Virus record (IMG/VR): IMGVR_UViG_3300035034_002228
Coordinates: 1 to 64,000 of that record
Reading direction: 5' to 3' (one strand)
From: a virus
DNA: 64,000 bases
In this document: positions 7,429 to 21,727 of the stretch, piece by piece
Layout of the letters: the number at the start of each line of letters is the position of its first letter
Position numbering within the stretch: position 1 is the first letter of the stretch
The notes under the pieces: model-generated
Databases searched by the model: none
What the model was told of the DNA's origin: nothing
The model's input: the letters and a program-made list of their open reading frames with translations, nothing else
Made by a program: the position numbers and the translations under genes

Positions 7429-7480
7429 TCTCAAACCATTGATCAGCCTACCAGCCCAAACGCCACGTAAAGGAGAGGTT

Positions 7481-9127
7481 ATGGCTACTGTAAACACAAC
7501 CGGTCTGTATGAATTTGATCCATACGGCACCAATCCTGATAATAAAATACCGGGTGAACTGCAGTCACTGCAAGTCCCCGGTCGGGACGACTACTATTTC
7601 ATCATCCCAAAAGCGGCCCCGTTCTTTGTCGACGGTTTTGAAATTGTGGACCACGACACTGGTCGTCCATACCTTGAAGGGCGTGATTTCCTGTTCGGGC
7701 ATTATTTCCCAGAAGGGTCGGACGCAACGGGTAAGGCCCTGGCCGGGTCGTTGCGATTCCTGAGTCGCGACATCACCGGCATCGTCCGAATGACATACCA
7801 GACCATCGGTGGCCATTGGGGTTTTGACGATCAAGCTGTGTTGGAGGAATTGTCCAACAAGGCAATCAACCCACTGACGCGAGCGTGGAGTCAGATTGAC
7901 ACATTGCCTGCGTTGTTCCCACCAATACCGCACGACCAAGGTACGGGAGAACTCATTGGGTTTGAAGAAGTGGTTGAGGCCATTGGGGACATTGAACGGG
8001 CATTGGGTGACACCGAAGCTGGAACCGTAACCGACCACATGAACAGTCGGGAAAACCCACACAACGTCACCAAGACGCAGATTGGGTTGGAGTTTGTGCA
8101 GAACTACCCCATGGCTAACCTAGCGGAAGCGGCGGACGGTCTTCGGAGCGATCGGTATATGTCGCCAAAGACGACCGATGCGGCGGTTGTGTCGGCGGTT
8201 GATCGTGAGATTGAAAAACACCTGAATGTCGATAATCCCCACGGCACGAATAAAGCCGATGTCGGTTTGCCCCTGGTTCGGAACTTTGGGATCGCCACCG
8301 AATCCACCGCCTACAACGCGACACGTAACGACCAATACATGACACCGTACTTGGTTGGCGTTGTGCTTCAGGCTTTGAAAAGTGAAGTTCTCGACCCGCA
8401 TTTTAACGATACCAACAACCCGCACAACCTGACCGCAGCCGATATTGGTGCGATCAACATGGAAACCATTACCGCCCTGTTGGAAAACTATCTGTTAACA
8501 AACGGCACCGCTTACGACACCGCCCGGACGTTTGGGATGAACCTGGAAGGACTTAAGCAGGAAATCTTGCTGGGCACTGCCGCGAATTCCGAAATGCTGG
8601 AAGGACAAACTTACGGGGAAATCAAAGACGACCTGTACACGCAGTTTGTGTACTTCACCACCTACACGTGGGAATACACCACCGGCGATTACTTGGGTCG
8701 TCAGGAACACCTCCCGTTTTACACCATGACGGAAACCACAGAACCGCTGGTATTGATCGGGAACGTACTGGGCACCGAAGGACGCCGGGCGTTGGTGAAC
8801 ATTGAAGTGGACTGGACCACCGAGGCGGTGAACATCACCACCCTCAACGGGATTCCCCCACTGAAAGATTTTGCCATGCGGGTTATCGGGACTGGGGCCG
8901 ATAAGGCCATTGAGTTGTCCTTGGATGTTCACGAAGTGCCCGTTACCCCAATCACGTTCATCCCCGTTCATCAACCCGACGGTCAATTCCTGCCCGATCC
9001 ATCTAGCGTTGGTCCAAACCATGGGAACGGACGTACGGCGGTTCCGGCAGTTGGTGCCGGTGCACAAGACGTCACCGATACATTGATCGAGTCCTTTAAT
9101 GCGGCGTCCGATCAACTGGAAGCTTAA
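7481..9127 (+). CDS. Tail-fibre-like virion protein (phiKZ-type N-terminal baseplate anchor)
   Basis: ATG 7481 with AGGAG RBS. N-terminus YEFDPYGTNPDNKIPGE...PKAAPFF and three NPHxxT(K/N) fibre repeats. Confidence 0.7.
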   Translation: MATVNTTGLYEFDPYGTNPDNKIPGELQSLQVPGRDDYYFIIPKAAPFFVDGFEIVDHDTGRPYLEGRDFLFGHYFPEGSDATGKALAGSLRFLSRDITGIVRMTYQTIGGHWGFDDQAVLEELSNKAINPLTRAWSQIDTLPALFPPIPHDQGTGELIGFEEVVEAIGDIERALGDTEAGTVTDHMNSRENPHNVTKTQIGLEFVQNYPMANLAEAADGLRSDRYMSPKTTDAAVVSAVDREIEKHLNVDNPHGTNKADVGLPLVRNFGIATESTAYNATRNDQYMTPYLVGVVLQALKSEVLDPHFNDTNNPHNLTAADIGAINMETITALLENYLLTNGTAYDTARTFGMNLEGLKQEILLGTAANSEMLEGQTYGEIKDDLYTQFVYFTTYTWEYTTGDYLGRQEHLPFYTMTETTEPLVLIGNVLGTEGRRALVNIEVDWTTEAVNITTLNGIPPLKDFAMRVIGTGADKAIELSLDVHEVPVTPITFIPVHQPDGQFLPDPSSVGPNHGNGRTAVPAVGAGAQDVTDTLIESFNAASDQLEA

Positions 9128-9140
9128 CCGGAGGTTTTAA

Positions 9141-10070
9141 ATGTCAGTCATTGTCAATAAGTACCCATTGGATCTGACGGGTAAACGTCCGGACAACTAT
9201 ATTCCGGGCGAGCGTCACGATCTGGATGCGGCAGTCACCACGGGTAATTACCGTGTGTTCGTGCCAAACTACGGTGGATTCTACACGCAGGACATGGTTG
9301 TCCGCGATGTGTCGGGTACCCCGTTGCGTAAAGGGGAGGATTACATCGCCACATACCTCTATGAACGACCGACCCTGAGGAGCGGTCTGGAAGTGTGTGG
9401 TGCGGTTGTTATTGTTAACCCCAACGTGTCCACCACAGTGTTCATGGACTACCAAGTGGTGGGGGGCGACTTCGCGGTTTCCACCGACGCCCTGCAGCAA
9501 GTGCTCAACACTTTGGCCGAAGAAGATCGGCCGGTTGAATGGGCCAACATCATTGGAAAACCGAACGAGTACCCCGCCGCTGGACACCTACACGCTCTGT
9601 GGGAACTGTACGGATTCGAACCGGTTGTCACCGAACTGGAACGGATTACCCAAGCGATCATGGCAGGCGATCAAGCCCTGCATGATGAAACCCGTGCGTA
9701 CGCTCTTACGCTGTTTGAAGAAGCCGGTGAAGCGCGGGACGCGCTGGAACGTCGCTTGGTTGACCACATGGAAGACGGGACCAATCCCCACGACGTGACG
9801 AAAGCACAAGTTGGGTTAGGTGACGTTGAGAATTACAAGATGGCCACCGATGTCCAAGCGGCCGCCATGGACGTCAAAACGCGTTACATGTCACCCCATG
9901 CGGTGGGCGTGGCCCTAGCCACACACGCCAATCCGAACGTGAATCACCACGACGGTCGGTACGTGAGAATCAGTACCACCGAAGAGACAAGCTTGCGGGT
10001 AAACAACAATCGACTTCAAGCCTATGTTAATGGCGGTTGGAAAACGATTTGGCCGGCACAGTGGGTGTAA
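9141..10070 (+). CDS. Short tail-fibre-like protein, paralogue of the preceding gene
   Basis: YPLDLTGKRPDNYIPGE N-terminus, GHLH motif, NPHDVTKAQVGLGDV repeat and C-terminal YVNGGWKTIW cap. Confidence 0.7.
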   Translation: MSVIVNKYPLDLTGKRPDNYIPGERHDLDAAVTTGNYRVFVPNYGGFYTQDMVVRDVSGTPLRKGEDYIATYLYERPTLRSGLEVCGAVVIVNPNVSTTVFMDYQVVGGDFAVSTDALQQVLNTLAEEDRPVEWANIIGKPNEYPAAGHLHALWELYGFEPVVTELERITQAIMAGDQALHDETRAYALTLFEEAGEARDALERRLVDHMEDGTNPHDVTKAQVGLGDVENYKMATDVQAAAMDVKTRYMSPHAVGVALATHANPNVNHHDGRYVRISTTEETSLRVNNNRLQAYVNGGWKTIWPAQWV

Positions 10071-10090
10071 ACCCACTGCTGCTTTTTTTT
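10059..10090 (+). terminator. Intrinsic terminator closing the fibre operon
   Basis: CAGTGGGT-GTAA-ACCCACTG followed by T8. Confidence 0.85.
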
Positions 10091-10148
10091 ACTTGGTGGC
10101 CTGATCGTATAGTAGTGACATTCATTCGATTTTAAACGAGGACGTACC

Positions 10149-11285
10149 ATGCGTGAATTGATGGTCTACCTGAAAACTACCGAAACCTGTCAGTTAAACT
10201 GTCAGCACTGTTTCACCAGTGGTACTAACGGTAAGAAAGGATGGTTTGATCCCGAAGCCACCGTTGACTTCTTTAAACGATTGAAGCAGCAGTTTCCAAC
10301 GTATCGTTCCGCCAACATCTCGTTCCATGGGGGCGAGCCGATGCTCTGTCCCTTGGAGAAAATGGAATACGTGTTCGACGAGCTTGACGGTTTGTGGGAC
10401 AACTTGAGTTGGGGGATTCAAACCAACCTTACCTACAAGCTGACCGACGAACGTTTGGCGTTCCTCAAGAAAGTTTCCGGCACGTCCATCGGCACGTCAT
10501 GGGACTACAGCATCCGGTGGCAAGGCAACCGGAATCAAGAAGCTCTGTGGGAAGAAAACGTCCGTCGCCTGGTGGCAGAAGGCATCGACGTTACGGTCAT
10601 GATTTGCGTATCCAAAGACTTGATGGAAGTGGAACCCATTGACGTCATCAACAAGATGATTGATTTAGGGGTAAACTTCATCAACTTCGAACGGATCACT
10701 GAAAACGGAAACGCCCGTGAGAACACCGGTATTTTCCCCACCAACTTGGAACTCGATGCGTGGTTCCTTAAAATGTGGGAACAAACACTGGAACATAAAG
10801 CGTACGAACGAATTCTGAATATGTTCGTTGAGAGTCTACTGACCAGTACCGTCTTTAATACGTTCTCTGGATGCCGCAGTCGTGAGTGCGAGCAGAAGAT
10901 CCTCACGTTGAACGCGGACGGGACCATCGGTGGTTGTCCCAATGGCGCCCCGGAAACAACCTTCGGACGTCTGGATCAAACCATAAACGAAATCGTATTT
11001 TCCGAAGGTCGTGGTTGTAACATCGCCAATGAAAGTACCTTGAACGAGGTGTGTTACACGTGTGATGTGTTTGATGTGTGTAACGGCGACTGTCACCAAC
11101 TTAACTGGCATGGGGATATCTGTGCTTCACCCAAATCCATGATGCGGGCAATGAAAAACACCAGCCAGGAGCAACTGCGGGAAGTACTTAATGGATTCAT
11201 GGGCGACGAAGGCATTCGGTACGAGAAAGAACCGTCGGCACTGACCATCGACCCAAACACCATCCCGATTGTGGAGGTTACCTGA
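10149..11285 (+). CDS. Radical SAM/SPASM enzyme 1
   Basis: CQLNCQHC (CxxxCxxC), HGGEP, and C-terminal IGGCPN...CYTCDVFDVCNGDC...C auxiliary-cluster motif. Confidence 0.92.
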   Translation: MRELMVYLKTTETCQLNCQHCFTSGTNGKKGWFDPEATVDFFKRLKQQFPTYRSANISFHGGEPMLCPLEKMEYVFDELDGLWDNLSWGIQTNLTYKLTDERLAFLKKVSGTSIGTSWDYSIRWQGNRNQEALWEENVRRLVAEGIDVTVMICVSKDLMEVEPIDVINKMIDLGVNFINFERITENGNARENTGIFPTNLELDAWFLKMWEQTLEHKAYERILNMFVESLLTSTVFNTFSGCRSRECEQKILTLNADGTIGGCPNGAPETTFGRLDQTINEIVFSEGRGCNIANESTLNEVCYTCDVFDVCNGDCHQLNWHGDICASPKSMMRAMKNTSQEQLREVLNGFMGDEGIRYEKEPSALTIDPNTIPIVEVT

Positions 11286-11286
11286 C

Positions 11287-11829
11287 ATGGCGGATTTAAA
11301 ACGAAGTGATTTTCACGCAGCCGTAAATTCTAATATTAACCAGTATGCCAAGGATCAGGCTCGATGGTGGAAGGGTAACGGCAGAAGCGGAAGTTATATG
11401 AACAACGGACCCCTGGTGTATTTGTCCCATTTCGATCGTGGGACTTCGGCAGCGACCGGGGATGCCGATGCCAGTAACGTGGTGGCTGTTATTAAAGCCG
11501 AAGCCGAACGTTGTACCTCCATGCGGAAAGTGTATACAGCCCGTTATTATTCGGGAAGTTATTACGGAAATGGGGACCGGCGTAAAGTCCGGGGCATTGC
11601 GGCCTTGAACTCCAACTACAGCCAGTCCATTTACAGTTTGAAAACGGCAGGTGGGCACCCCAACTACGTGTCCACAAATAACAACGCCGATTGGTCGAAT
11701 TTGAGTGACCTAATCCAATCCGTTCAAGACGATCTGTACGACAAAATCCACAAAAGCGGTGTTGTGGATTTGTCGGTTTGTCATTCAAAGTGTCATGGTA
11801 ACTGCCATTCCTCAAGGAATAGACGATGA
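11287..11829 (+). CDS. 180-aa protein with C-terminal (CHxx)3 motif; putative radical-SAM substrate
   Basis: ATG 11287 with GGAGG RBS. Ends DLSVCHSKCHGNCHSSRNRR and has an S/N/G/Y-rich body. Confidence 0.7.
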   Translation: MADLKRSDFHAAVNSNINQYAKDQARWWKGNGRSGSYMNNGPLVYLSHFDRGTSAATGDADASNVVAVIKAEAERCTSMRKVYTARYYSGSYYGNGDRRKVRGIAALNSNYSQSIYSLKTAGGHPNYVSTNNNADWSNLSDLIQSVQDDLYDKIHKSGVVDLSVCHSKCHGNCHSSRNRR

Positions 11830-12896
11830 TACGATTACTGAAAAATCTGACGCTGGATTACAGCTTTTCAAGTCCCAGTGGAATGGCTGACCCTAAGGAC
11901 CTCGTGTATATCAATTACCTGGGGTCTAAAACGTTCTCTGCCGACTCAGAACCTTTAATGAAATACCCCAAGTTAGACGTTCTGTTGGATGCGCCGGGCG
12001 GGCTCAATGATTTTTTAGAAACGGTAGTCCTCAGTGGTCGCTCCGTTACTGCGTTTGTGGACGAGATCGATTTAAATCGTTTCTACGTGCATTTCCTCAG
12101 AGGGGTGTTTCCAAACATCACACTTGAGAACACACATCGTTTATTGCGACTCACGGTAGTGGATCAGAAACACAGCCAAACAAACCGGTCGACAAAAGTG
12201 GCGGTAAATCGGGAGGGCAAGCTTGGTCTTACCTTACCGACCCCAATGCAGACTCGAATTTGGTTTGAAGGAGCAGCCAAACAGAACGAGTTCTCAGACA
12301 CGGTGAAAGAAAACGTCTCCATTGAATATTTGATGTTAAATGCATTGGCCGTCAACTACGATCCACACGACCCATTCGTGGTGTATTTCCGTGAGCGACT
12401 GGATGACCTGTTATGGGACATGCTGACGGCGGATTACACAAAACGACGTCGGAAGTTACTGTTGGGTATCTTTAAGTTAAAAGAAAACTTAGATATCGAC
12501 ATCGACCCGTTTGCCGACGACCTGGAGTCTCAAATCGCAGAGCTGGACGCAAAGCTCGGGCTGGACGGTTCTATTAACGAGAAGACAGCCGCCAATGCAC
12601 AACGAATTCACAACACGATCGTGTCGATCAACAAAAAGAACGGCATTGTTGAGGATTTTAAAGAGCTTATTGCACGCTTCTTTTTAAACGACCATGGCAT
12701 CACGCATGACGAGTTTGTTGAACTGATCAAAACCGACCGGCGTCAACCATGGAGTGCTTTATTCGGGCGCAATAAAATGCTGCGTGGTACTGGTTCGCTA
12801 ATATTCAGTTATCTACACAGTGCTACAGCTGATAAACTCTCTGACATGCGTCTGACAAACACAGAGGAAAGTGATCATGCTTCACTTAATAGATGA
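11826..12896 (+). CDS. Unknown protein, paralogue A of a triplet
   Basis: ATGA overlap with the upstream stop. Shares SIEYLM..L...DPFV..F...LW and S.LFGR blocks with the next two ORFs. Confidence 0.75.
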   Translation: MIRLLKNLTLDYSFSSPSGMADPKDLVYINYLGSKTFSADSEPLMKYPKLDVLLDAPGGLNDFLETVVLSGRSVTAFVDEIDLNRFYVHFLRGVFPNITLENTHRLLRLTVVDQKHSQTNRSTKVAVNREGKLGLTLPTPMQTRIWFEGAAKQNEFSDTVKENVSIEYLMLNALAVNYDPHDPFVVYFRERLDDLLWDMLTADYTKRRRKLLLGIFKLKENLDIDIDPFADDLESQIAELDAKLGLDGSINEKTAANAQRIHNTIVSINKKNGIVEDFKELIARFFLNDHGITHDEFVELIKTDRRQPWSALFGRNKMLRGTGSLIFSYLHSATADKLSDMRLTNTEESDHASLNR

Positions 12897-13917
12897 CATC
12901 CGAGCGGACTTTTCATTCACGTCCATCGGACTCAAAAAACCAACCGATACGTTCGTTTATTTAGACGATCGAACGCACACCTCAGGGGATCACCATTTTG
13001 AGGGTGTGATGGAGTTTGATGGGTTGAAAGACGCAATGGATCAATTTGGGGATTTACCTACCTTGATTGAGACAGTGTTGTTGCTGGAAGGGGACGTCTG
13101 GTTAATGCTAGACCCTGACGACATGTACCAGCTGGTTGTAACACACTACCGTTCGATCTACCCGGAGTTGCCAATCGATGTGGTTCATGCGGTTCTGAGG
13201 ACGTTTTACATCCACCACCGTTTTGTGCGTGTTAAAGGGTTTGCTTACGACCATTACTCAGAGCAACTCCCCCTGCCGACCTGGGAAGACACGGAACGGC
13301 TCTACGCGAACTCCAGACATGGGAATGGGTACAGCAACGAACTCAAGAAACATTTGAGCTATGAGGTCTTGCTGGCACACGCCCTGAGTGTGGACTTCGA
13401 CAACGACGACCCGTTCGTCACTCAGTTCGCCAAAAACATCGAACGGATGTTGTGGATTTCCTGTGCCCGCGATTTTGTGAAACGGCGGATGACTGCATTC
13501 GACAACGGCTTTCAACTTAAACAGACGTTGGATCTCCCGCTCAATTTTGACCGTAACGACATTGAACGTCAGTTAGAGGTTCCGGTGGTGAAACGGTTCT
13601 TCAACCCCGACGTCACCTACAAAGATGTTGAGGCGATCAAAGCCGATTACGACTACGTCAGAAAAATGATAGCGAAGGTGGACGCACTGGTGGGTTACGG
13701 TGACGCGTACAACCCATCGCTTTTTGATTTCCTAGACCCAGGTCGTTCCTTTACCGGGTCGGTGGTAAAAGGGTTGGTTGAACTCGATCAGGAATCGTTG
13801 TGGTCCTTTATGTTTGGCCGGGAAAAACTGACCAAAGACACAAACGGGGTGTTTGTTAACTACCTTTACACTTTGGATCGAGAACAACTGACCCACTTTA
13901 CATTGAATGGTGCGTAA
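12877..13917 (+). CDS. Unknown protein, paralogue B of a triplet
   Basis: MLHLIDDIRADFSF...SYEVLLAHAL..DF..DDPFV..F...MLW...SFMFGR. Confidence 0.75.
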   Translation: MLHLIDDIRADFSFTSIGLKKPTDTFVYLDDRTHTSGDHHFEGVMEFDGLKDAMDQFGDLPTLIETVLLLEGDVWLMLDPDDMYQLVVTHYRSIYPELPIDVVHAVLRTFYIHHRFVRVKGFAYDHYSEQLPLPTWEDTERLYANSRHGNGYSNELKKHLSYEVLLAHALSVDFDNDDPFVTQFAKNIERMLWISCARDFVKRRMTAFDNGFQLKQTLDLPLNFDRNDIERQLEVPVVKRFFNPDVTYKDVEAIKADYDYVRKMIAKVDALVGYGDAYNPSLFDFLDPGRSFTGSVVKGLVELDQESLWSFMFGREKLTKDTNGVFVNYLYTLDREQLTHFTLNGA

Positions 13918-13919
13918 AC

Positions 13920-14954
13920 ATGTTGCATTTGCTGGACAAGGTCTACGTTGATTACGACTTTACTGGAAACATTGGTCGCAACAACCTAATCTACGTAGGT
14001 CCCATGGGTATGTTGAAACACACCCACGGTCCGAAACCGCTTTATCAGTTTCCTTCATTGAATACCATCGTTCGGGAATTTGGTGATATACCAACGTTTA
14101 TCGAATGTTTGACACCCCTCGGACAGAAGACCATTATTTTAATGGACGAAGGTTCGATGAACCAATTGCTGGTAACGTGGCTTCGTTCGGTCTTCCCTAA
14201 GATAACCGCCAAAATGGTGCACCGTTTTTTAAAGTTAAACGCAGTGAACCATAAGTACGAACACGGAAGTCGCACCAGTACCAAAGGTTCTCGGAAAGAC
14301 GGGTTTCGAAACCTCACGATTCCCACGTTGGACGATGTTGAGGGAATGTGGAACGATCTGAAAGCGGTTCCCTTGTCCATGGAGCTCAAAGAACGGGTGA
14401 GTTTTGAGTACTTACTGGCACACGTGCTTCTGATGGACTTCCACCCGACCGATCGGTTTGTGAAAGCATTCGTTCAGCGCATGGAGACCATCCTTTGGAA
14501 GTCGGTCGCTTGGGATTTTGTTGGTGTTCGGCGGGACTTACTGTACGGCATGTATAATCTGAAAGAGAACTTTGGTTTGGGTGTGGACTTAGAACAAGAC
14601 GACATCGATGACCAAATTGAAGCCCTTGAGGACACGGTGTTGTTTAACCCAGACAACCATCCTGGGAATGTGGAGTTCATCAAAGACAACCATGCGGCCA
14701 TCCGTGAAATGGTCGAAAAGGTCCATGCAATGAATGGCACGACTGACCCTTTCTTGAATCAGTTGTTGCGGATTTTGCCCAACGGGGTGTTCACTGAAGT
14801 TAAAGCCAAAGAACTGATCGACGAAGACCGGCGGGCGCATTGCAGTCAGATCTTTGGTCGAACGGAGTTTCGGGACAACATGAACAATAACTTCATTGGG
14901 TATCTGTACCGTGCCTCCTGGTCCGAACTCGAAAAAATGAATCTTAACGAATGA
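13920..14954 (+). CDS. Unknown protein, paralogue C of a triplet
   Basis: MLHLLDKVYVDYDF...SFEYLLAHVL..DF..TDRFV..F...ILW...SQIFGR. Confidence 0.75.
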   Translation: MLHLLDKVYVDYDFTGNIGRNNLIYVGPMGMLKHTHGPKPLYQFPSLNTIVREFGDIPTFIECLTPLGQKTIILMDEGSMNQLLVTWLRSVFPKITAKMVHRFLKLNAVNHKYEHGSRTSTKGSRKDGFRNLTIPTLDDVEGMWNDLKAVPLSMELKERVSFEYLLAHVLLMDFHPTDRFVKAFVQRMETILWKSVAWDFVGVRRDLLYGMYNLKENFGLGVDLEQDDIDDQIEALEDTVLFNPDNHPGNVEFIKDNHAAIREMVEKVHAMNGTTDPFLNQLLRILPNGVFTEVKAKELIDEDRRAHCSQIFGRTEFRDNMNNNFIGYLYRASWSELEKMNLNE

Positions 14955-14963
14955 GGTAATCAC

Positions 14964-15656
14964 ATGATCACAGTACCCCTGCCCATGAAAGAACTGCACG
15001 AGGTCATCAGTGACAACAGCAAAGTCTATGATGTCGATTACAGCAACTCCAAGATCAAAGGGAAGCCGTTCGTTTTCTATCTGGCCAACCTGAACGTGAA
15101 GACACGGATTAATGTCGAGACACTGACCAAAGAAGAACTCAAAGAGCTTCTGGTGATATACATGACGATCAACACACCGTTCAAGTGTGAAGAACTCAAC
15201 GTCTTGGTCATGTTGACGTTACTGCACTTCATGGAGGGCGATACGTCGGGAATAACCACTTTTGATTTACCCGACGGGTTCTTGGACGAATTCGTTGAGG
15301 AGAACCAAGATCTCATGGCTCGGTATTTCCTCTTTTGTTCTTCAATGATCAAATACTGCGACTACATTCGAAGTATCTCGGATGACAAAGAGCCCGACCT
15401 TCGCGGTTACGATGGGACCATTGACGACCCGAAATACATTGGGGTGAATGTGGTGTGGCTTTTTGAGATCCCTTCGTTCTTCGAGCTGTTCTTTTCGGCG
15501 CGGGACCCTCAGGACTACCCACAAGTGTACTTCCCGGTTCAGTTTGAAGAGTACATGTTCAATGGTAAGAACTTGTTTTACTTCTTCGTGGGTGATAAAG
15601 AAAACCCCAACTGGTTGCTTCTGAACAAAACCGCACTGGAGAAATTACATGACTGA
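14964..15656 (+). CDS. Unknown acidic protein of the radical-SAM cassette
   Basis: 230-aa ORF with GAGG RBS, overlapping the next radical-SAM gene. Confidence 0.7.
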   Translation: MITVPLPMKELHEVISDNSKVYDVDYSNSKIKGKPFVFYLANLNVKTRINVETLTKEELKELLVIYMTINTPFKCEELNVLVMLTLLHFMEGDTSGITTFDLPDGFLDEFVEENQDLMARYFLFCSSMIKYCDYIRSISDDKEPDLRGYDGTIDDPKYIGVNVVWLFEIPSFFELFFSARDPQDYPQVYFPVQFEEYMFNGKNLFYFFVGDKENPNWLLLNKTALEKLHD

Positions 15657-16653
15657 GAACATGGAAAATCTGATCCCACTGGTGGAGCTAGTGGAAGCGA
15701 AGCGGGGACCGAATAAAGAATTTTTTATCAACTTCTTTGAACGGTGCAACTTGCAATGTGGTTTTTGTTGGCAGGACCATGACGACTGGACAGGGGTTGA
15801 CCAAATCGTTGAAAAAGCCGAGTTGGTGATCAATAACACAAATGACCACGACTTCTACAGTGTGAATGTCATGGGTGGGGAGTTGTTCATGGACGAACTC
15901 CCCGATAGTGTGTTTGACGATTACTTAGAATTCTGCCGTCGGGTTGTGGTGTCGGTGAAACACTGCGAGATAAACTTTGTCACAAACCTGGTGTTCGAGA
16001 AAACCGAACGTGTTGTTCGGTTTGTGAAAACGTTGGAAGAAGCACTGATACCTTTTACGTTTTGCACGTCGTACGATGTGTCGGGCCGTTTTAACACAAA
16101 AACGTTTGCCACGTTTGAACGAAACCTCGCGGTTTTCAAACCATGGCTTTCCAACATCTCAGTGGTGTTGACGCGCCCCAACATCGAACGGTTCATGCGT
16201 CGTCCCGATGTGGCGCTGGATCGCCTGTACAAGGAATACCCGATTTTCTTTGATTACTATTCCCCCGAAGACAACGTCGAGGTACTTCAACCAACGGATG
16301 TGGAGCTGGTCGACTTTTACCTATGGTTAAACGAAAACTACCCGGAGAGTCAACCGATCAAAGCCTTTCGGGAGAACCAGCACAACCCAGCAACGTGTCG
16401 GAGTTCGTTCATCATCCTACCAACCGGGATGACCGGCTCGTGTAGAGTGTTGGCGGACCGCGACCAGTTTAAATCGGACCCAACTGTTGTGGATAACATC
16501 CATGAGTCGGAAGCACGGTTCATTCAGGAACGGGAGTGTTTGAGTTGTGAGTTCTACCAGAAATGCGGGTTGGGATGCTTTCTTCACAGCGACCATGTGA
16601 ACATCACCAATAAACACTGCGAGTTCAAACGACTATATGGAGAACTCGCGTGA
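15649..16653 (+). CDS. Radical SAM enzyme 2 (Cys-rich C-terminal domain)
   Basis: CNLQCGFC, MGGEL and C-terminal CLSCEFYQKCGLGC...C. Confidence 0.9.
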   Translation: MTENMENLIPLVELVEAKRGPNKEFFINFFERCNLQCGFCWQDHDDWTGVDQIVEKAELVINNTNDHDFYSVNVMGGELFMDELPDSVFDDYLEFCRRVVVSVKHCEINFVTNLVFEKTERVVRFVKTLEEALIPFTFCTSYDVSGRFNTKTFATFERNLAVFKPWLSNISVVLTRPNIERFMRRPDVALDRLYKEYPIFFDYYSPEDNVEVLQPTDVELVDFYLWLNENYPESQPIKAFRENQHNPATCRSSFIILPTGMTGSCRVLADRDQFKSDPTVVDNIHESEARFIQERECLSCEFYQKCGLGCFLHSDHVNITNKHCEFKRLYGELA

Positions 16654-17633
16654 GCATTGAAAAATTCAATTCATTTGAGTTGCAGTTAGAAATACTGGCT
16701 GGGTGCGCGTTTAACTGCGTCGGGTGTCACGTCGATCGGGAGTCCCCAAACAAAGCGACCGATAAGATGTATCGGGTAGCCTACGAGTTCTTAGAACAAG
16801 TCGACCCCTACGCTGTTGTGATAGGGAGTACCGACATCTTCACCGCCACCAATACCCTGGAAGTCTTAAACGACATCCGGTTGACCGAACTGATAAAACG
16901 GTTTGACCGACTGGTGGTTAACTCCACCATGGTGAAGCCGAACACGGCTGTACTGGACGCCATTACACGCTTGGGTATGAAGGAAGTTCAAGTGAACATC
17001 GTGATTCCCGAATCGAAGAACTTAAACGAGCGGTACAACACTGTGGTGTCCGAAAAGGTCCGGGAAGTAAAGGAGCGCTTTCCAGATTTGATCCTACATC
17101 CGCAATTGAACCTGAGCGGTTCATTGACCGTTGACAACTACGAAGAGTTGAACGATTTCTACATACGTCACTACGGACAAGGTGTGGATTTCAATCTGTC
17201 GTTTGCTCGCACCAGTTCGGACCCGAATAAGTATCGGGCGGCGTTTGATTGGCTGAAAAAGGTTACGGCAACCACCAGTGCCACCGTTGATGGATGTATG
17301 GATGGCCAACACGTGGATGTGGTCAGTCCCCACGACAAGCTGGAACGGGTGATCATTTTCTACGAAAACGAATTCTACGCCATCCCCATCGTTTACGAAG
17401 ATCTTATTCAAATTCGCGAACGTTATCGGATATCTGGACTCGATGAATACCGTAAGAAATACGATACGGTGGTTTTAGAGCAGTATGCCTACACGGTAAA
17501 AACCGATGAGTGCGGTGAGTGTCCATTTCTACCGACATGTCTTGACCATCGTGTTTTGGCGGTTATGGAAGATTACGACATCACCAGCTGTATACTCCCC
17601 AAGGAAACCATTGCCAGAGTCAACCAGTGGTGA
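16650..17633 (+). CDS. Radical SAM-like protein 3 (divergent)
   Basis: CAFNCVGC, with the GGE motif replaced by GSTD. C-terminal CGECPFLPTC...C. GTGA overlap with the upstream gene. Confidence 0.8.
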   Translation: MSIEKFNSFELQLEILAGCAFNCVGCHVDRESPNKATDKMYRVAYEFLEQVDPYAVVIGSTDIFTATNTLEVLNDIRLTELIKRFDRLVVNSTMVKPNTAVLDAITRLGMKEVQVNIVIPESKNLNERYNTVVSEKVREVKERFPDLILHPQLNLSGSLTVDNYEELNDFYIRHYGQGVDFNLSFARTSSDPNKYRAAFDWLKKVTATTSATVDGCMDGQHVDVVSPHDKLERVIIFYENEFYAIPIVYEDLIQIRERYRISGLDEYRKKYDTVVLEQYAYTVKTDECGECPFLPTCLDHRVLAVMEDYDITSCILPKETIARVNQW

Positions 17634-17641
17634 CGGAATAA

Positions 17642-17676
17642 AACACCCACGGTGCAAGTCCGTGGGTGTTATGTCG
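17642..17676 (+). terminator. Internal hairpin/terminator of the radical-SAM cassette
   Basis: AACACCCACGG-TGCAAGT-CCGTGGGTGTT followed by ATGTCG. Confidence 0.7.
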
Positions 17677-17743
17677 ACTTCTATTTGTTTTCAACGCATG
17701 CGGCCAACTATATAGTCTTTTATTCACAGGTCGGAGACCCGTA

Positions 17744-18784
17744 ATGGATTTGATCATTAAACCAACCGAACTCTGTAACTTCGCCTGCACGTTTTGCAGT
17801 TCTACCAGCATTACCGACAACAAAACCGATGTATTAAACCTAGACTACATTGCCCGTTTTCTAGACCGGTTCCCGGAAACTAACACCATCATTGTCAATG
17901 GCGGCGACCCATTGATGCTCAAGCCGGATTATTACTGGGACATCCTTAAGCTATTGGAAGAACGGAACATGACGGAAACCATCGTTGGTTTTACCACCAA
18001 CCTCTGGGATTTCTACAAGCGCCCTGACAAATGGACCGAACTATTCCGTCATCCCCAGTTCTCTGTGTGCACCTCCTTCAACTACGGCGACAGTCGACGT
18101 ATCAGTAAGAATCGTGTTTTCACCGAAGCCGATTTCTTGGCCATCAGCGACTTGTTTCTTGAACGTGTGGGTTACCGGCCAGACTTTATTTCCGTCATTG
18201 ACGAAGACAATCGCGATACCGCCATTGACAATGTCCGATTGGCTAAACGTCTTGGGGTGGAATGCAAACTGAATTTGGCCATGGTCAGTGGTCGCCAAAA
18301 AGAACCGTTCTTGATCTCCGACGTACACGAACTTTACCTTGAGATCTACGACGAGGGGCTCATGCCGTGGGAGTACAACACCAAACAGATGGTGAACGCC
18401 CTTAATAGTTACCACACCACTTGCCCAATCAGCCGTGACTGTGACACCGGTATCCGTAATATTCACCCCAATGGCGAGTACTACAGTTGCGGTTCCTTTG
18501 GGGACGATCGGAAGTTCCCCATCGATTTCAATAAAGAGATGGAAAGTGACACCATCGCCACGCCCTTGTCCAAAGAGATCACCATGCGGTCCATGCATGA
18601 CGGCTGTTTTGGGTGTGAGTTGTTTGCTCTGTGTAACGGCTGTCGAAAAACCATCCGTGACACGCAACAAGCAGGGCTGGTTGAAAAACATTGCACCACA
18701 ATGACCGCACTCAAACCAAGACTGTTGGAAGCGGCGGAGAAAGAACCATACGCGGTGGGAGGACTGAGTGATAGTATCGATTAA
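17744..18784 (+). CDS. Radical SAM/SPASM enzyme 4
   Basis: ATG 17744 with GGAG RBS. IKPTELCNFACTFC, NGGDP, CPISRDC...YYSC...CFGCELFALCNGC...C. Confidence 0.92.
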   Translation: MDLIIKPTELCNFACTFCSSTSITDNKTDVLNLDYIARFLDRFPETNTIIVNGGDPLMLKPDYYWDILKLLEERNMTETIVGFTTNLWDFYKRPDKWTELFRHPQFSVCTSFNYGDSRRISKNRVFTEADFLAISDLFLERVGYRPDFISVIDEDNRDTAIDNVRLAKRLGVECKLNLAMVSGRQKEPFLISDVHELYLEIYDEGLMPWEYNTKQMVNALNSYHTTCPISRDCDTGIRNIHPNGEYYSCGSFGDDRKFPIDFNKEMESDTIATPLSKEITMRSMHDGCFGCELFALCNGCRKTIRDTQQAGLVEKHCTTMTALKPRLLEAAEKEPYAVGGLSDSID

Positions 18785-19667
18785 CCCGTTGTACCGGTGT
18801 AACTTCCGGTGCAGTAACTGTTACCTAACTGAGGAACAGCTTCGGTCACGCGCTTTGTTGGACTTAGAGCAGTTAGACCGACGCTTGGCGGACATACCCG
18901 AGATTGACGCGGTTGAACTTTATGGAGGCGAAGTCACTTTATTAGACGAGAGCTATGTTAACGACCTTAAAGGTGTGGTACGTCGGTATTACGACGGTCC
19001 GATCTCCGTGACCACCAATAGTTACCAGATGCCGGAATGGATTTATCACGACGACATCGACGTCAACGTCTCTTACGATTTCAATCATCGACCACACCAC
19101 GAACAGGTGTTCACGAATCTGTTGGTTTTCTCCAGGCCGGTGAACGTTATTGTGTTGGCCACGCCAGAAGTAATGGCCGACGATGTAGACCAACAGATCG
19201 AACTAATACGCTCTCTGGTGAATTTGAACTCGGTTGAAATCAAACCTTACAGTCCAAACCAAGCCAACGATCGCGGGAACCGTAACCAAGACTACGTAGA
19301 GTACGTCAAACGCTGGATACGCGGTTTCCCTAATAATCGCTTGCGTAACAGCGCCTTGTTGAATGAGGTGGCTGACGGGGTCCGTAATGCCTTCTCCGAC
19401 GACCACGTGTACATCACGCCCGAAGGAAAGTTCGGGGTGTTGGAATTCGACGAATTCGACCGCGAATACTTTCTCCAGTTGCCGGATTTTAAAGCCTACC
19501 AGCAATGGACCAAGAACGAAAAACACAAATTGCTATCAGAAATATGTCGGGCGTGTGAGTTTAAAGGTAGGTGTTTGACCGAACATTATCGACGGAAGGA
19601 AGGTCTGGATGGGGAATGTAGTGGGTACAAATCGCTCATCGAGTGGTGGTTGGGTCGAGCGGCTTAA
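18768..19667 (+). CDS. Radical SAM enzyme 5
   Basis: INPLYRCNFRCSNC, YGGEV and C-terminal CRACEFKGRC...C. Confidence 0.9.
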   Translation: MIVSINPLYRCNFRCSNCYLTEEQLRSRALLDLEQLDRRLADIPEIDAVELYGGEVTLLDESYVNDLKGVVRRYYDGPISVTTNSYQMPEWIYHDDIDVNVSYDFNHRPHHEQVFTNLLVFSRPVNVIVLATPEVMADDVDQQIELIRSLVNLNSVEIKPYSPNQANDRGNRNQDYVEYVKRWIRGFPNNRLRNSALLNEVADGVRNAFSDDHVYITPEGKFGVLEFDEFDREYFLQLPDFKAYQQWTKNEKHKLLSEICRACEFKGRCLTEHYRRKEGLDGECSGYKSLIEWWLGRAA

Positions 19668-20039: not shown

Positions 20040-20609
20040 ATGAGCAGTGAGGCAATGTGGCCAACTTTTATCGAAACCCACGATCTTAGTGATGATTGCG
20101 ACTTGGATCAGGCCGTGACTGAATGCTTAATGGTGTCCAATACACTTCAGGACAAAAACAACCTACCCTTAAAAGACTGAGGTACACCCGAACTCCACCG
20201 TATCCACGAAGAGTTAATCATGCCGTTGTTCTACCAACACTTGGAAAGGCGTTACCAATTCAAACCGGAAGGGGTGTCGGTGGCCAATTGGATCTTCGGT
20301 GGGAACGACGGCAGTGGCCTGGAACCCCACATCCATTCGGGTTCGCATTTTACGGCTGTTTTTTACCCAATGGTCGTCGGTGGTAGTATTGTCATGGTGG
20401 ACCCGCGATACAGTGCACAACGTGGATATCCTCGGGATTTCATCGACGGTCATTTTGGGAAGAAGAAGATCAACCCAACCGCCGGTCAATTGGTAATCAT
20501 GCCCAGTTTCCTTGAGCATTACGTCACCGGCTTTAAACAGGGACTGCGTTTGTCATTTGTAAACGACATCATTTTACGCACCGACGACGGTGATGTCCAT
20601 TTCGATTGA
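20040..20609 (+). CDS. 2OG-Fe(II) oxygenase (TIGR02466-like) with in-frame TGA at codon 47 (readthrough, pseudogene or sequencing error)
   Basis: ATG 20040 (GAGGTG RBS) reads MSSEAMWPTFIETHDL..., TGA at 20178-20180, then the same frame continues into the 20220 ORF with PHIH..HFTAVFY, PSFLEHYV and RLS motifs. Confidence 0.75.
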
Positions 20610-20839: not shown

Positions 20840-21727
20840 ATGGCCGCAATCGATCAGGAGATTATTGGCGTCAGTCGTACCGTCTACGGGACGTACCTTC
20901 AGACCATCAAGAATCTCGGACTTCCGTTTACCCTCATTCAAAACACCACGTTGAACGAACGCTTTGACGTCCAGTCGGGTGTTGCACCAGAGTCACATCA
21001 AACCCCAAGCATGCGTTATTTGGCCATCGGTAACCTGGGCCACGCCACCGTCAAAGCCGACGACGGTAGCGATGAAACCGTACCGCTGGTTCACCGCGCA
21101 ACTGACGCCGGTATGTACGGTCAGATCCCGTTTGTGTTGCGTGAGTTGACAAACGATCTGCCGGCGCACGAACGTAGTCGCTACGGTCTACGGGTGTTGG
21201 AATCACACAATGGTCGTCAGTACATCGCTTATTACCTGCGTCGGATCAACATGACTCAGGTTACCCCACAGCTCCAGCGAGTTGAAATCATCGACGGTGT
21301 TTCAACCGTGGTTCCGTTTGTGCCAAGTACAGACAATCTAAACCCAGCCCGTCCAAAGATCCCCAACAGCGGTATGGTGGTGGGTTCTAACTCGTCCGAG
21401 TCCGCATCGGCGGTGGTTACCATCAGCCTTACGCCAAGTGACGTGGCTGAGATCTTGAACGCCCACCGCATCCGAACTGGATCGACTCGTTCACCGGTTA
21501 TCTCTGAATTGGCGCTGGTCTCCGGGGTGGATAAAGAAGTGTCGGGTAGCAGTGGTGGTTCGGGTAACTTCACGTACCGCGAGGTTATTGCCGCGCAGAT
21601 CAATGTACACATCTCCACGTACCACGCTTTGGGGTATTCAACCAACGGTGCTGAATTCACCCTTGACGTGGGTGGCGTTGAACCAACCTTGGGTGAAGAC
21701 GACGTCAATGGTGCCACCATTATCTAA
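20840..21727 (+). CDS. phiKZ-like virion (baseplate) structural protein
   Basis: NTTLNERF, YLAIGNLGH, IPFVLR..NDL, YIAYYLRRI and ISELALVSGVD motifs recalled from conserved phiKZ-family structural proteins upstream of RuvC. Confidence 0.65.
   Translation: MAAIDQEIIGVSRTVYGTYLQTIKNLGLPFTLIQNTTLNERFDVQSGVAPESHQTPSMRYLAIGNLGHATVKADDGSDETVPLVHRATDAGMYGQIPFVLRELTNDLPAHERSRYGLRVLESHNGRQYIAYYLRRINMTQVTPQLQRVEIIDGVSTVVPFVPSTDNLNPARPKIPNSGMVVGSNSSESASAVVTISLTPSDVAEILNAHRIRTGSTRSPVISELALVSGVDKEVSGSSGGSGNFTYREVIAAQINVHISTYHALGYSTNGAEFTLDVGGVEPTLGEDDVNGATII

Follow-up and report, generated by a model that had tools for sequence, protein, structure and literature searches.

In three-residue cyclophane (triceptide) systems, a SPASM-type radical S-adenosylmethionine (radical-SAM, rSAM) enzyme is encoded beside a precursor with repeated aromatic-x-x motifs. 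The ranthipeptide (PapB), SCIFF (CteB), and QhpD maturases are SPASM enzymes that form thioethers on short peptide precursors with acidic acceptor residues, and anSME acts on a folded protein, oxidizing Cys or Ser in the sulfatase motif C/S-x-P/A-x-R. Here we describe a 180-amino-acid (aa) protein, the CH protein, encoded among five radical-SAM genes (rSAM1 to rSAM5) in a 64,000-nucleotide stretch of viral DNA (positions 1 to 64,000 of IMG/VR record IMGVR_UViG_3300035034_002228; the whole stretch is hereafter the window). It belongs to a family whose consensus C-terminal tail is the 16-residue (C-H-x-S)x3-R-G-R-R-COOH. The CH protein is probably a radical-SAM-matured repeat protein, of a kind already known in outline. 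The nearest described system is the HXS antiphage system (Li et al., Nat Commun 2026, PMC13128918), which follows the same logic but to which our locus does not belong on sequence and architecture. HxsA, as described there, is 214 aa long and has five HxS repeats; the radical-SAM enzymes HxsB and HxsC, together with HxsD, mature it (+8 Da on SHRSS). It carries an N-terminal export signal and a peptidoglycan-binding domain, acts in the periplasm, and binds DNA; the gene order is HxsD-B-C-A.

Like HXS, the family described here combines a protein-sized putative substrate, short tandem repeats, nearby basic residues, and adjacent genes for several radical-SAM enzymes and a small helper protein; in HXS, maturation is cytoplasmic and action is outside. 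The His-x-Ser of the HXS repeats may have a counterpart here, since H-x-S can be read within the unit C-H-x-S, but at a four-residue period and with a Cys, and in the window only in the third unit (HSS). Unlike those of HXS, the repeats are four residues long with an invariant Cys, lie at the extreme C terminus, and close with RGRR; five radical-SAM genes (four to seven in other loci) are accompanied by 2-oxoglutarate (2OG) and cupin oxygenases; and the protein is phage encoded beside tail fibers, with neither a signal peptide nor a peptidoglycan-binding domain. At E ≤ 0.01, the HXS models in NCBIfam matched none of 98 family members, window protein included, and the enzymes stayed far below the HXS cut-offs (rSAM1 versus HxsB, TIGR03978, 28/370 bits; rSAM4 versus HxsC, TIGR03977, 27.3/267.9 bits). 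The HXS architecture is also absent, with no Pfam domain in the CH protein, a polar N terminus, and the gene order rSAM1, CH, three paralogues, p230, rSAM2 to rSAM5.

The remaining systems each resemble the locus in part. As beside the triceptide maturases FxsB, YhhB, and XyeB, a SPASM gene is adjacent, and H-x-S, H-x-N, and H-x-K fit the aromatic-x-x motif type, but the precursor here is folded and has an invariant Cys before each His; scores against cyclophane maturases remained below cut-off (FxsB, 36.4/370; YhhB, 36.2/445; AmcB, 34.2/425; XyeB, 21.8/450 bits). Cyclophanes may form at His here, an idea that is wholly conjectural. A regularly spaced, Cys-rich C-terminal target beside SPASM enzymes recalls PapB, CteB, and QhpD, and the rSAM1 profile has CteB (5wgg) as one of its top sequence matches in the PDB. 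In contrast to those systems, the family here would use His or Ser as partner residues, on a substrate 125 to 360 aa long; the window precursor is a folded protein of 180 aa, whereas ranthipeptides, sactipeptides, and SCIFF peptides derive from a short Cys-rich peptide. The cut-offs were again not reached (rSAM1 versus PapB, 39.9/340; rSAM2 versus the SCIFF maturase, 15/425 bits). For rSAM1, anSME is both the best-scoring family and a full-length PDB match (4K36-4K39), and the C-x-x-x-R spacing of the sulfatase motif recurs in the last unit, C-H-S-S-R; the Pro/Ala position of that motif is instead Ser, Gly, or Asn, three to four units are repeated, several enzymes are present, and Pfam identified no sulfatase domain in any cassette protein. 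The CXXX-repeat maturase model (TIGR04115) gave 27.7 bits against a cut-off of 350, over residues 8-66 only, and the CXXX-repeat target-family models matched 0 of the 98 members. In literature searches, no description of the tail or of the cassette came up, and a text search found no paper containing any of five literal tail strings. Papers on FLC6, SURPRISE13, RP12/RP31, and the pQBR plasmids, in their excerpted text, merely list "radical SAM" genes, and the main texts of the Atu_ph07 and RP31 papers name no cassette gene.

The CH gene (11287 to 11829, + strand, as are all window features below) encodes a predicted alpha/beta body and ends in the tail (11779 to 11829), which consists of three four-residue Cys-His units, R-N-R-R, and the stop. 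The codons are TGT CAT TCA AAG / TGT CAT GGT AAC / TGC CAT TCC TCA at 11779-11814 and AGG AAT AGA CGA TGA (R N R R stop) at 11815-11829, and the C terminus reads VDLSV-CHSK-CHGN-CHSS-RNRR-stop, exactly the series of units with 12-nucleotide (nt) periodicity that the original prediction had singled out. Three Cys-His codon pairs at this spacing occur once in the 64-kb window, in 0 of 100 dinucleotide-preserving shuffles, and once in the entire 81,795-base virus record (CheckV completeness, 27%). Although the listed open reading frame (ORF) spans 11269 to 11829, the ATG at 11287 is the likely start, giving 180 aa, because GGAGG lies at 11273-11277 and 7 of 7 close homologues begin at the equivalent Met. 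One base exactly separates this ATG from the rSAM1 stop (TGA, 11283-11285), also as predicted, and at the other end the ATG of the following gene (11826) overlaps the CH stop (cgATGA). The N terminus (MADLKRSDFHAAVNSN...) is polar and, by inspection, free of any hydrophobic signal-like stretch, in agreement with the earlier statement that a signal peptide is lacking.

Neither Pfam nor NCBIfam holds a family for the window CH protein. Its sole library match is PHROG 35144 ("unknown function"), which is weak (E = 2.6e-4, 21.7 bits, residues 103-180) but is shared by 88 of the 98 aligned family members, the best at E = 4.7e-129; among those 98, NCBIfam models gave no meaningful match. Searched with tblastn against isolated phages, the CH protein matched 12 records, over the C-terminal 10 to 35% of the query only, from RSL2-like Ralstonia and Burkholderia jumbo phages, Agrobacterium phage Atu_ph07, and Pseudomonas phage DT01. 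The tails read CHSSCHTSCHGSRGRR in RSL2, CHSSCHASCHNSRSRR in Atu_ph07, CHTSCHTSCHSARGRR in DT01, and CHTSCHASCHSSRSRR in Sinorhizobium phage Phosso. A 10-kb piece of the cassette had no megablast match in the phage collection, and in the PDB the tail had no sequence match at E ≤ 10 and the family profile no meaningful one. A back-translated DNA pattern (C-H-x-x-C-H-x-x-C-H-x-x-R-x-R-R-stop) found at least 119 loci on viral contigs. Among the matches listed (119 loci), 142 of 142 stand in frame at the extreme end of an ORF; the complete tail-bearing ORFs (n = 133) are 124 to 364 aa long, and 23 of the 119 loci carry two tail genes, mostly in tandem. A short form (124 to 140 aa) occurs as tandem pairs in L005, L029, L038, and 20 other viral loci, where the pair is followed by up to six rSAM3-like genes and not by rSAM1.

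We then searched 1.84 billion representatives (clusters at 50% identity) with a profile built from the 98 members, obtaining 891 clusters at E ≤ 1e-3, 707 at E ≤ 1e-10, and 158 at E ≤ 1e-30. Among the best 149 of the 891 clusters, 135 have the standard tail (one with four units), 3 stop right after the CH units, and 11 show small variants, so that the tail, whose conservation had been proposed as a test, is near-invariant across hundreds of divergent homologues. Position 4 of units 1, 2, and 3 is Ser in 126, 105, and 122 of the 135 standard tails, respectively; the family unit is therefore C-H-x-S, and the Lys and Asn found there in the window are atypical. The suggestion that H-S-K, H-G-N, and H-S-S form three aromatic-x-x sites was built on this atypical sequence and is not supported by the family. 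Unit number varies from 1 to 6 across the family. Variant tails were also seen: 24 loci (within L199-L235) end in ...CHGS plus a single I or L, without RxRR; L190-L192 end in CHSS-CHSS-HSS-RNRR, in which the third Cys is absent; and P0008 has no third His.

The bodies upstream of these tails are far more variable, with a mean column identity of 19% in the alignment versus 59% for rSAM1, and one Arg (R80) is nearly invariant outside the tail. An AlphaFold2 (AF2) model of the window CH protein, computed from the family alignment, has a mean predicted local distance difference test (pLDDT) score of 80.2 and a predicted template modeling (pTM) score of 0.75 and places three long helices against a beta hairpin. 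On this model, the body is a folded, fast-diverging domain, which bears out the expectation of a folded N-terminal part, rather than a short leader, and fits a protein-sized precursor. Foldseek matched the model to nothing in the PDB at E ≤ 0.001. The best VIA-align (wide) hit had a Z score of 4.2, and the phage Milano, Mu baseplate, and TssK chains (Z 2.9 to 4.2) were discarded as too weak; the ESM Atlas gave no usable match for either the CH protein or p230. Two fusion forms were noted: P0048 (453 aa) has a Pfam Gly_rich_2 domain (PF21722) N-terminal to the CH domain, and P0141 (276 aa), which may be a chimeric gene call, has an N-terminal Peripla_BP_3 fragment.

Because loci collected by the motif are invariant in the motif by construction, we sampled linkage starting from the enzyme. 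A search with 55 aligned rSAM1 orthologues (mean column identity, 59%) retrieved 385 relatives from viral contigs, and we retained the best 80 loci. In 72 of these 80, the rSAM1 orthologue is followed downstream by an ORF with a (CHxx)2-3 tail, which is of the standard form in 45, (CHxx)3 plus a single I or L with no RxRR in 24, and CHSS-CHSS-HSS-RNRR, with the third Cys missing, in 3. The other 8 had insufficient downstream DNA (≤1,274 nt; one with an inserted ORF first); every assessable locus (72/72) thus has a Cys-His-repeat tail after rSAM1, and the proposed link to radical-SAM genes is sustained. From the motif side, the window proteins were compared by phmmer with the 119 listed viral loci: 112 hold at least one radical-SAM homologue, 99 have one no more than 1.5 kb from the tail, and 86 hold a p230 homologue; the usual order is rSAM1, CH, p230, (paralogue), rSAM2, rSAM4. 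Among isolated phages, rSAM1 matched 15 records. In RSL2, Atu_ph07, and DT01, the rSAM1 orthologue is immediately followed by the CH-tail match; Phosso, which was found through rSAM1 alone, has the tail on the ORF next after its rSAM1 orthologue.

The same pairing extends to Pseudomonas megaplasmids, where the protein body differs. Genes like rSAM1 are present on 115 plasmids (108 Pseudomonas, 5 Vibrio, 1 Rhizobium, 1 Photobacterium). On pQBR103, five radical-SAM genes follow a gene set resembling type IV pilus and type II secretion systems, and a 124-aa ORF directly after the rSAM1-like gene (L263:9326-9700) ends YCHSACHGACHGACHGARGWR; its homologue on a P. aeruginosa megaplasmid (L264:301-675) ends CHNACHGACHGACHGSRGWR and has, by inspection, a signal-peptide-like N terminus. 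This plasmid tail has four C-H-x-[AS] units, with position 4 mostly Ala, and RGWR, and homologues of the 124-aa protein occur on 129 plasmids. In a comparison covering the five window radical-SAM proteins, p230, and two of the three paralogues, the radical-SAM protein upstream of the plasmid tail gene matched rSAM1 only (27% identity, E = 4.5e-21), and another from the same operon had rSAM4 as its best match. The plasmid regions are therefore like the phage cassette in having a tail protein directly after an rSAM1-like gene, plus an rSAM4-like gene, and unlike it in their signal-peptide-like N terminus and in having pilus and secretion neighbors instead of tail fibers; the plasmid body is unrelated, with no detectable similarity to the phage CH family. 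Phages and plasmids share the tail and the enzymes alone, and nothing else in the comparative evidence speaks as strongly for an action of these enzymes on the tail. The excerpted text of two reports (PMC4989453; bioRxiv 10.64898/2026.03.27.714766) names this region, beside type IV pilus genes on pQBR and IncP-2-type megaplasmids, "arylsulfatase/radical SAM," gives its function as undetermined, and does not mention the tail.

Outside plasmids, the tail keeps company with fibers and occurs in predatory bacteria. In 8 of 10 diverse phage loci, the large ORF upstream of rSAM1 matches a tail or tail-fiber PHROG, and seven of these 10 sampled ORFs share one type of C-terminal domain (phrog_22593). 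Applied to prokaryotes at one genome per species, the tail pattern matched 47 contigs, eight of which (L125, L126, L127, L129, L130, L147, L155, and L158) were rejected as short low-complexity CH/RR runs or for a TGG end. Of the 39 genuine contigs, 27 are labeled Bdellovibrionota (Bdellovibrio, Pseudobdellovibrio, Bacteriovoracaceae, and Halobacteriovoraceae; contigs up to 2.8 Mb); these encode the same enzymes, and 19 of them p230 as well. The remaining 12 may be phage contigs binned into metagenome-assembled genomes. The Halobacteriovoraceae cassette lies between housekeeping genes and includes 2OG and JmjC oxygenases and a 413-aa Peptidase_S74 "endosialidase chaperone" protein, a domain typical of fibers (L259:7768-9006, - strand); the Bacteriovoracaceae cassette encloses a 2,355-aa Big_2/RCC1 protein (L261:6869-13933, - strand). 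Flanked as they are by housekeeping genes, the Bdellovibrionota cassettes, with their fiber- or adhesin-like members, look unlike an ordinary prophage.

A near-invariant tail linked to rSAM1-type enzymes in phages, predatory bacteria, and plasmids invites the interpretation that the CH protein is a dedicated substrate of protein size and that the radical-SAM enzymes encoded with it modify its tail. We consider this somewhat probable, because tail and enzymes stay constant across divergent bodies, fibers, and plasmids, and the precedent of HxsA (protein sized, with HxS repeats, matured by radical-SAM enzymes) supports it. The substrate core proposed in the original prediction thus survives in its substrate role and its linkage, both strongly favored by the comparative evidence; its aromatic-x-x sites came from atypical sequence and lack that support. 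In this scheme, rSAM1, encoded just upstream of CH, would probably work with the four other radical-SAM proteins, abstracting hydrogen atoms from tail residues and installing covalent changes in the reducing cytoplasm; the most plausible changes would be intramolecular cross-links, as Cys thioethers and/or carbon bridges from His to position 4. Both are compatible with the conserved C, H, and S/N/A/K positions. The matured protein would then act outside the cell with the neighboring tail-fiber apparatus. We infer modification of the tail, the roles of the enzymes, their chemistry, and the association with fibers from this comparative picture, and each may prove otherwise.

If the tail is modified, phages would be using radical chemistry of the kind known for ribosomally synthesized and post-translationally modified peptides (RiPPs) on a folded protein that works with the host-binding apparatus; the papers found by literature searches include no RiPP-type maturation step for a phage attachment protein. 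The family spans phiKZ-like and Rak2-like/T4-core jumbo phages (RSL2, Atu_ph07), many uncultured phage contigs, and predatory bacteria, and it reaches clinically important Pseudomonas megaplasmids with a radical-SAM region. An invariant 16-residue target with four to seven dedicated SPASM enzymes is attractive for the discovery of new radical-SAM reactions, and culturable models are at hand in RSL2 and RSF1 (Ralstonia), DT01 (P. aeruginosa), Atu_ph07 (Agrobacterium), and pQBR103 (P. fluorescens SBW25); RSL2 ORF068, DT01 PA10_00065, and Atu_ph07 gp170 are the homologues in three of these phages. More speculatively, the multi-enzyme kit may rebuild a (Cys-His-x-Ser)n-Arg-Gly-x-Arg C terminus into a cross-linked, possibly metal-holding cap, a chemistry common to phage tail-fiber modules, Bdellovibrionota fibers, and megaplasmid type IV pili and needed for adhesion or host recognition; we put this forward tentatively, as an extension that is rather unlikely to hold in full.

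Several observations weigh against modification of the tail by the co-encoded enzymes. For every family member, modification is a prediction from sequence and models, and in the AF2 model the tail has low confidence (mean pLDDT 49 for the last ~10 residues). Pfam and NCBIfam scans found no RiPP recognition element (RRE)- or PqqD-like recognition domain in the cassette, and no cassette enzyme reaches the cut-off of any curated maturase family in NCBIfam; no reaction can therefore be transferred by homology. Natural variants lack the third Cys (L190-L192), the third His (P0008), or RxRR (24 loci), so that neither the third unit nor the basic end contains any one residue that is indispensable. 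We do not call the CH protein a virion protein, and its link to the 9141-10070 fiber, which is drawn from gene position, may be wrong. Finally, three Cys and three His could equally form a metal site, and the five enzymes could have their true substrate in the fiber or in another protein.

The metal site deserves the most weight among the alternatives. The tail would then be an unmodified metal or Fe-S module, serving either as a structural site in an oligomeric fiber-associated protein or as a cluster or electron donor for the five radical-SAM proteins. Cys and His, here three of each at fixed spacing, are classic metal ligands, a unit number varying from 1 to 6 is what stacked metal layers in a fiber could produce, and the genes adjoin fiber genes; the T4 gp37 tip has iron-binding HxH layers. 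A plain metal site would have no need, however, of the strict pairing of tail and rSAM1-type enzyme in phages, Bdellovibrionota, and plasmids, and position 4 is Ser, not a usual ligand, in ~90% of units. As for a cluster or electron donor, the signal-peptide-like N terminus of the plasmid homologues, seen by inspection, argues against a cytoplasmic role. We judge an unmodified metal module unlikely.

The enzymes could, alternatively, target the fiber, collagen-like proteins, or a small molecule, leaving the CH protein as an accessory (chaperone, adaptor, or regulator). Five radical-SAM genes plus oxygenases seem many for a single CH-tailed protein, the fiber gene is upstream in 8/10 sampled loci, and the 2OG, cupin, and JmjC oxygenases of the kit are of types that typically hydroxylate proteins. 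The candidate targets, though, change from place to place: phage fibers vary (phrog_2163 here versus a phrog_22593/19602-type C terminus elsewhere), Bdellovibrionota have the Peptidase_S74 fiber or the Big_2/RCC1 giant, and plasmids have pilins, whereas the tail is the only invariant peptide that travels with the enzymes. An accessory role for the CH protein therefore appears improbable.

It is harder still to see the tail as a scaffold on which a cofactor-like or metal-chelating molecule is built and then released. Small molecules are built from a peptide and released in this way from the PQQ and mycofactocin precursors, and an invariant C-terminal motif on a variable body, several tailoring enzymes, and a basic RGRR end, at which processing could take place, would suit such a route. 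Pfam, NCBIfam, and PHROG scans, however, recognized no protease or peptidase gene in the cassette, the body is a conserved fold of 125 to 360 aa and not a short leader, and the genes are tied to fiber or pilus genes and not to metabolic ones, which makes release of a product highly improbable. An HXS-like effector, acting in superinfection exclusion (against entry of rival phage DNA) or as a decoy against host HXS defense, is scarcely credible: HxsA likewise has H-x-S repeats with basic residues, is radical-SAM matured, and binds DNA (PMC13128918), but no family member matches the HXS models, the enzymes lie far under the HxsB and HxsC cut-offs, the phage proteins have neither signal peptide nor peptidoglycan-binding domain, and gene order and fiber context are unlike HxsD-B-C-A.

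The cassette in the window begins directly downstream of two tail-fiber-like genes (7439-9127 and 9141-10070), the second of which matches phrog_2163, a virion structural protein (E = 4e-97), and several tail or tail-fiber PHROGs; in RSL2 and DT01, too, orthologues of the window fiber-like genes precede the cassette. A cupin/JmjC-like ORF stands between the fiber gene and rSAM1 in many other phages (e.g., L001:7050-7538 and L197:2489-3001); in the window it is absent, and 10070-10149 holds 78 noncoding bases with a terminator-like hairpin at 10059-10078. A promoter and terminator scan of the window gave counts not above shuffles, and we therefore draw nothing from it on operon limits. Four DNA sequencing runs, from salt-lake and lake-water metagenomes, contain part of the window, and the sequencing-run search listed no RNA run as containing it.

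rSAM1 (10149-11285) is a radical-SAM/SPASM protein by Pfam (PF04055, 34.4 bits versus a cut-off of 29.5), phrog_1802 (E = 1.4e-54), and its Cys pattern (CxxxCxxC plus a C-terminal Cx9-15Gx4C ... Cx2Cx5Cx3C ... C), which is kept in 55 orthologues 39 to 61% identical to it; against the TIGR04085 SPASM model, it falls just under the cut-off (26.7 versus 27). Its best NCBIfam match is anSME (TIGR03942; 65.4 bits versus a cut-off of 349.45, residues 10-318), and the PDB matches of its profile are a radical-SAM core protein (8vpo), CteB, anSME, and ChlB. The best families of rSAM1 and rSAM4 (anSME, DarE, DynA, CbpB, PapB, FxsB, and YhhB) all modify peptides or proteins, and all scores are far below cut-off. 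rSAM4 (17666-18784), also radical SAM/SPASM, scores 42.5 bits with PF04055 and 48.6 bits with DynA (cut-off, 450). rSAM2 (15649-16653), with CxxxCxxC and a SPASM-like Cys pattern, is below the PF04055 cut-off at 20.1 bits and matches phrog_1802 (E = 5e-32), as rSAM3 (16650-17633), a divergent radical-SAM-like protein, is below it at 19.7 bits and matches phrog_31457; rSAM5 (18768-19667), with a CNFRCSNC motif, scores 29.8 bits versus the cut-off of 29.5. Cys patterns, read by inspection, mark rSAM1, rSAM2, and rSAM4 as SPASM-type.

Between the CH gene and p230 lie three tandem paralogues of ~350 aa (11826-12896, 12871-13917, and 13920-14954), which have no Pfam or NCBIfam match; the third matches phrog_36207 weakly, and relatives of the paralogues occur in some other cassettes. 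The partner protein p230 (14964-15656; 230 aa; phrog_20767, unknown function) is encoded directly after the CH gene in most other loci, and in the window and its close relative L022 the paralogues precede it. Most other loci have p230 first, with only one paralogue or none detected. The AF2 model of p230 has a pLDDT of 90.6; no conserved catalytic-looking residues were seen, Pfam and NCBIfam gave no family, Foldseek gave no match, and profile comparison found p230 unrelated to the third paralogue and to rSAM1. Its VIA-align hits, headed by the radical-SAM chains ChlB and anSME (best Z, 3.2), were set aside as too weak. A 140-aa ORF separates rSAM5 from the 2OG-Fe(II) oxygenase gene that closes the cassette (20220-20609; PF13759, 32.1 bits versus a cut-off of 27), and right after the cassette a 295-aa protein (20840-21727) is a full-length member of DUF7208 (357 bits).

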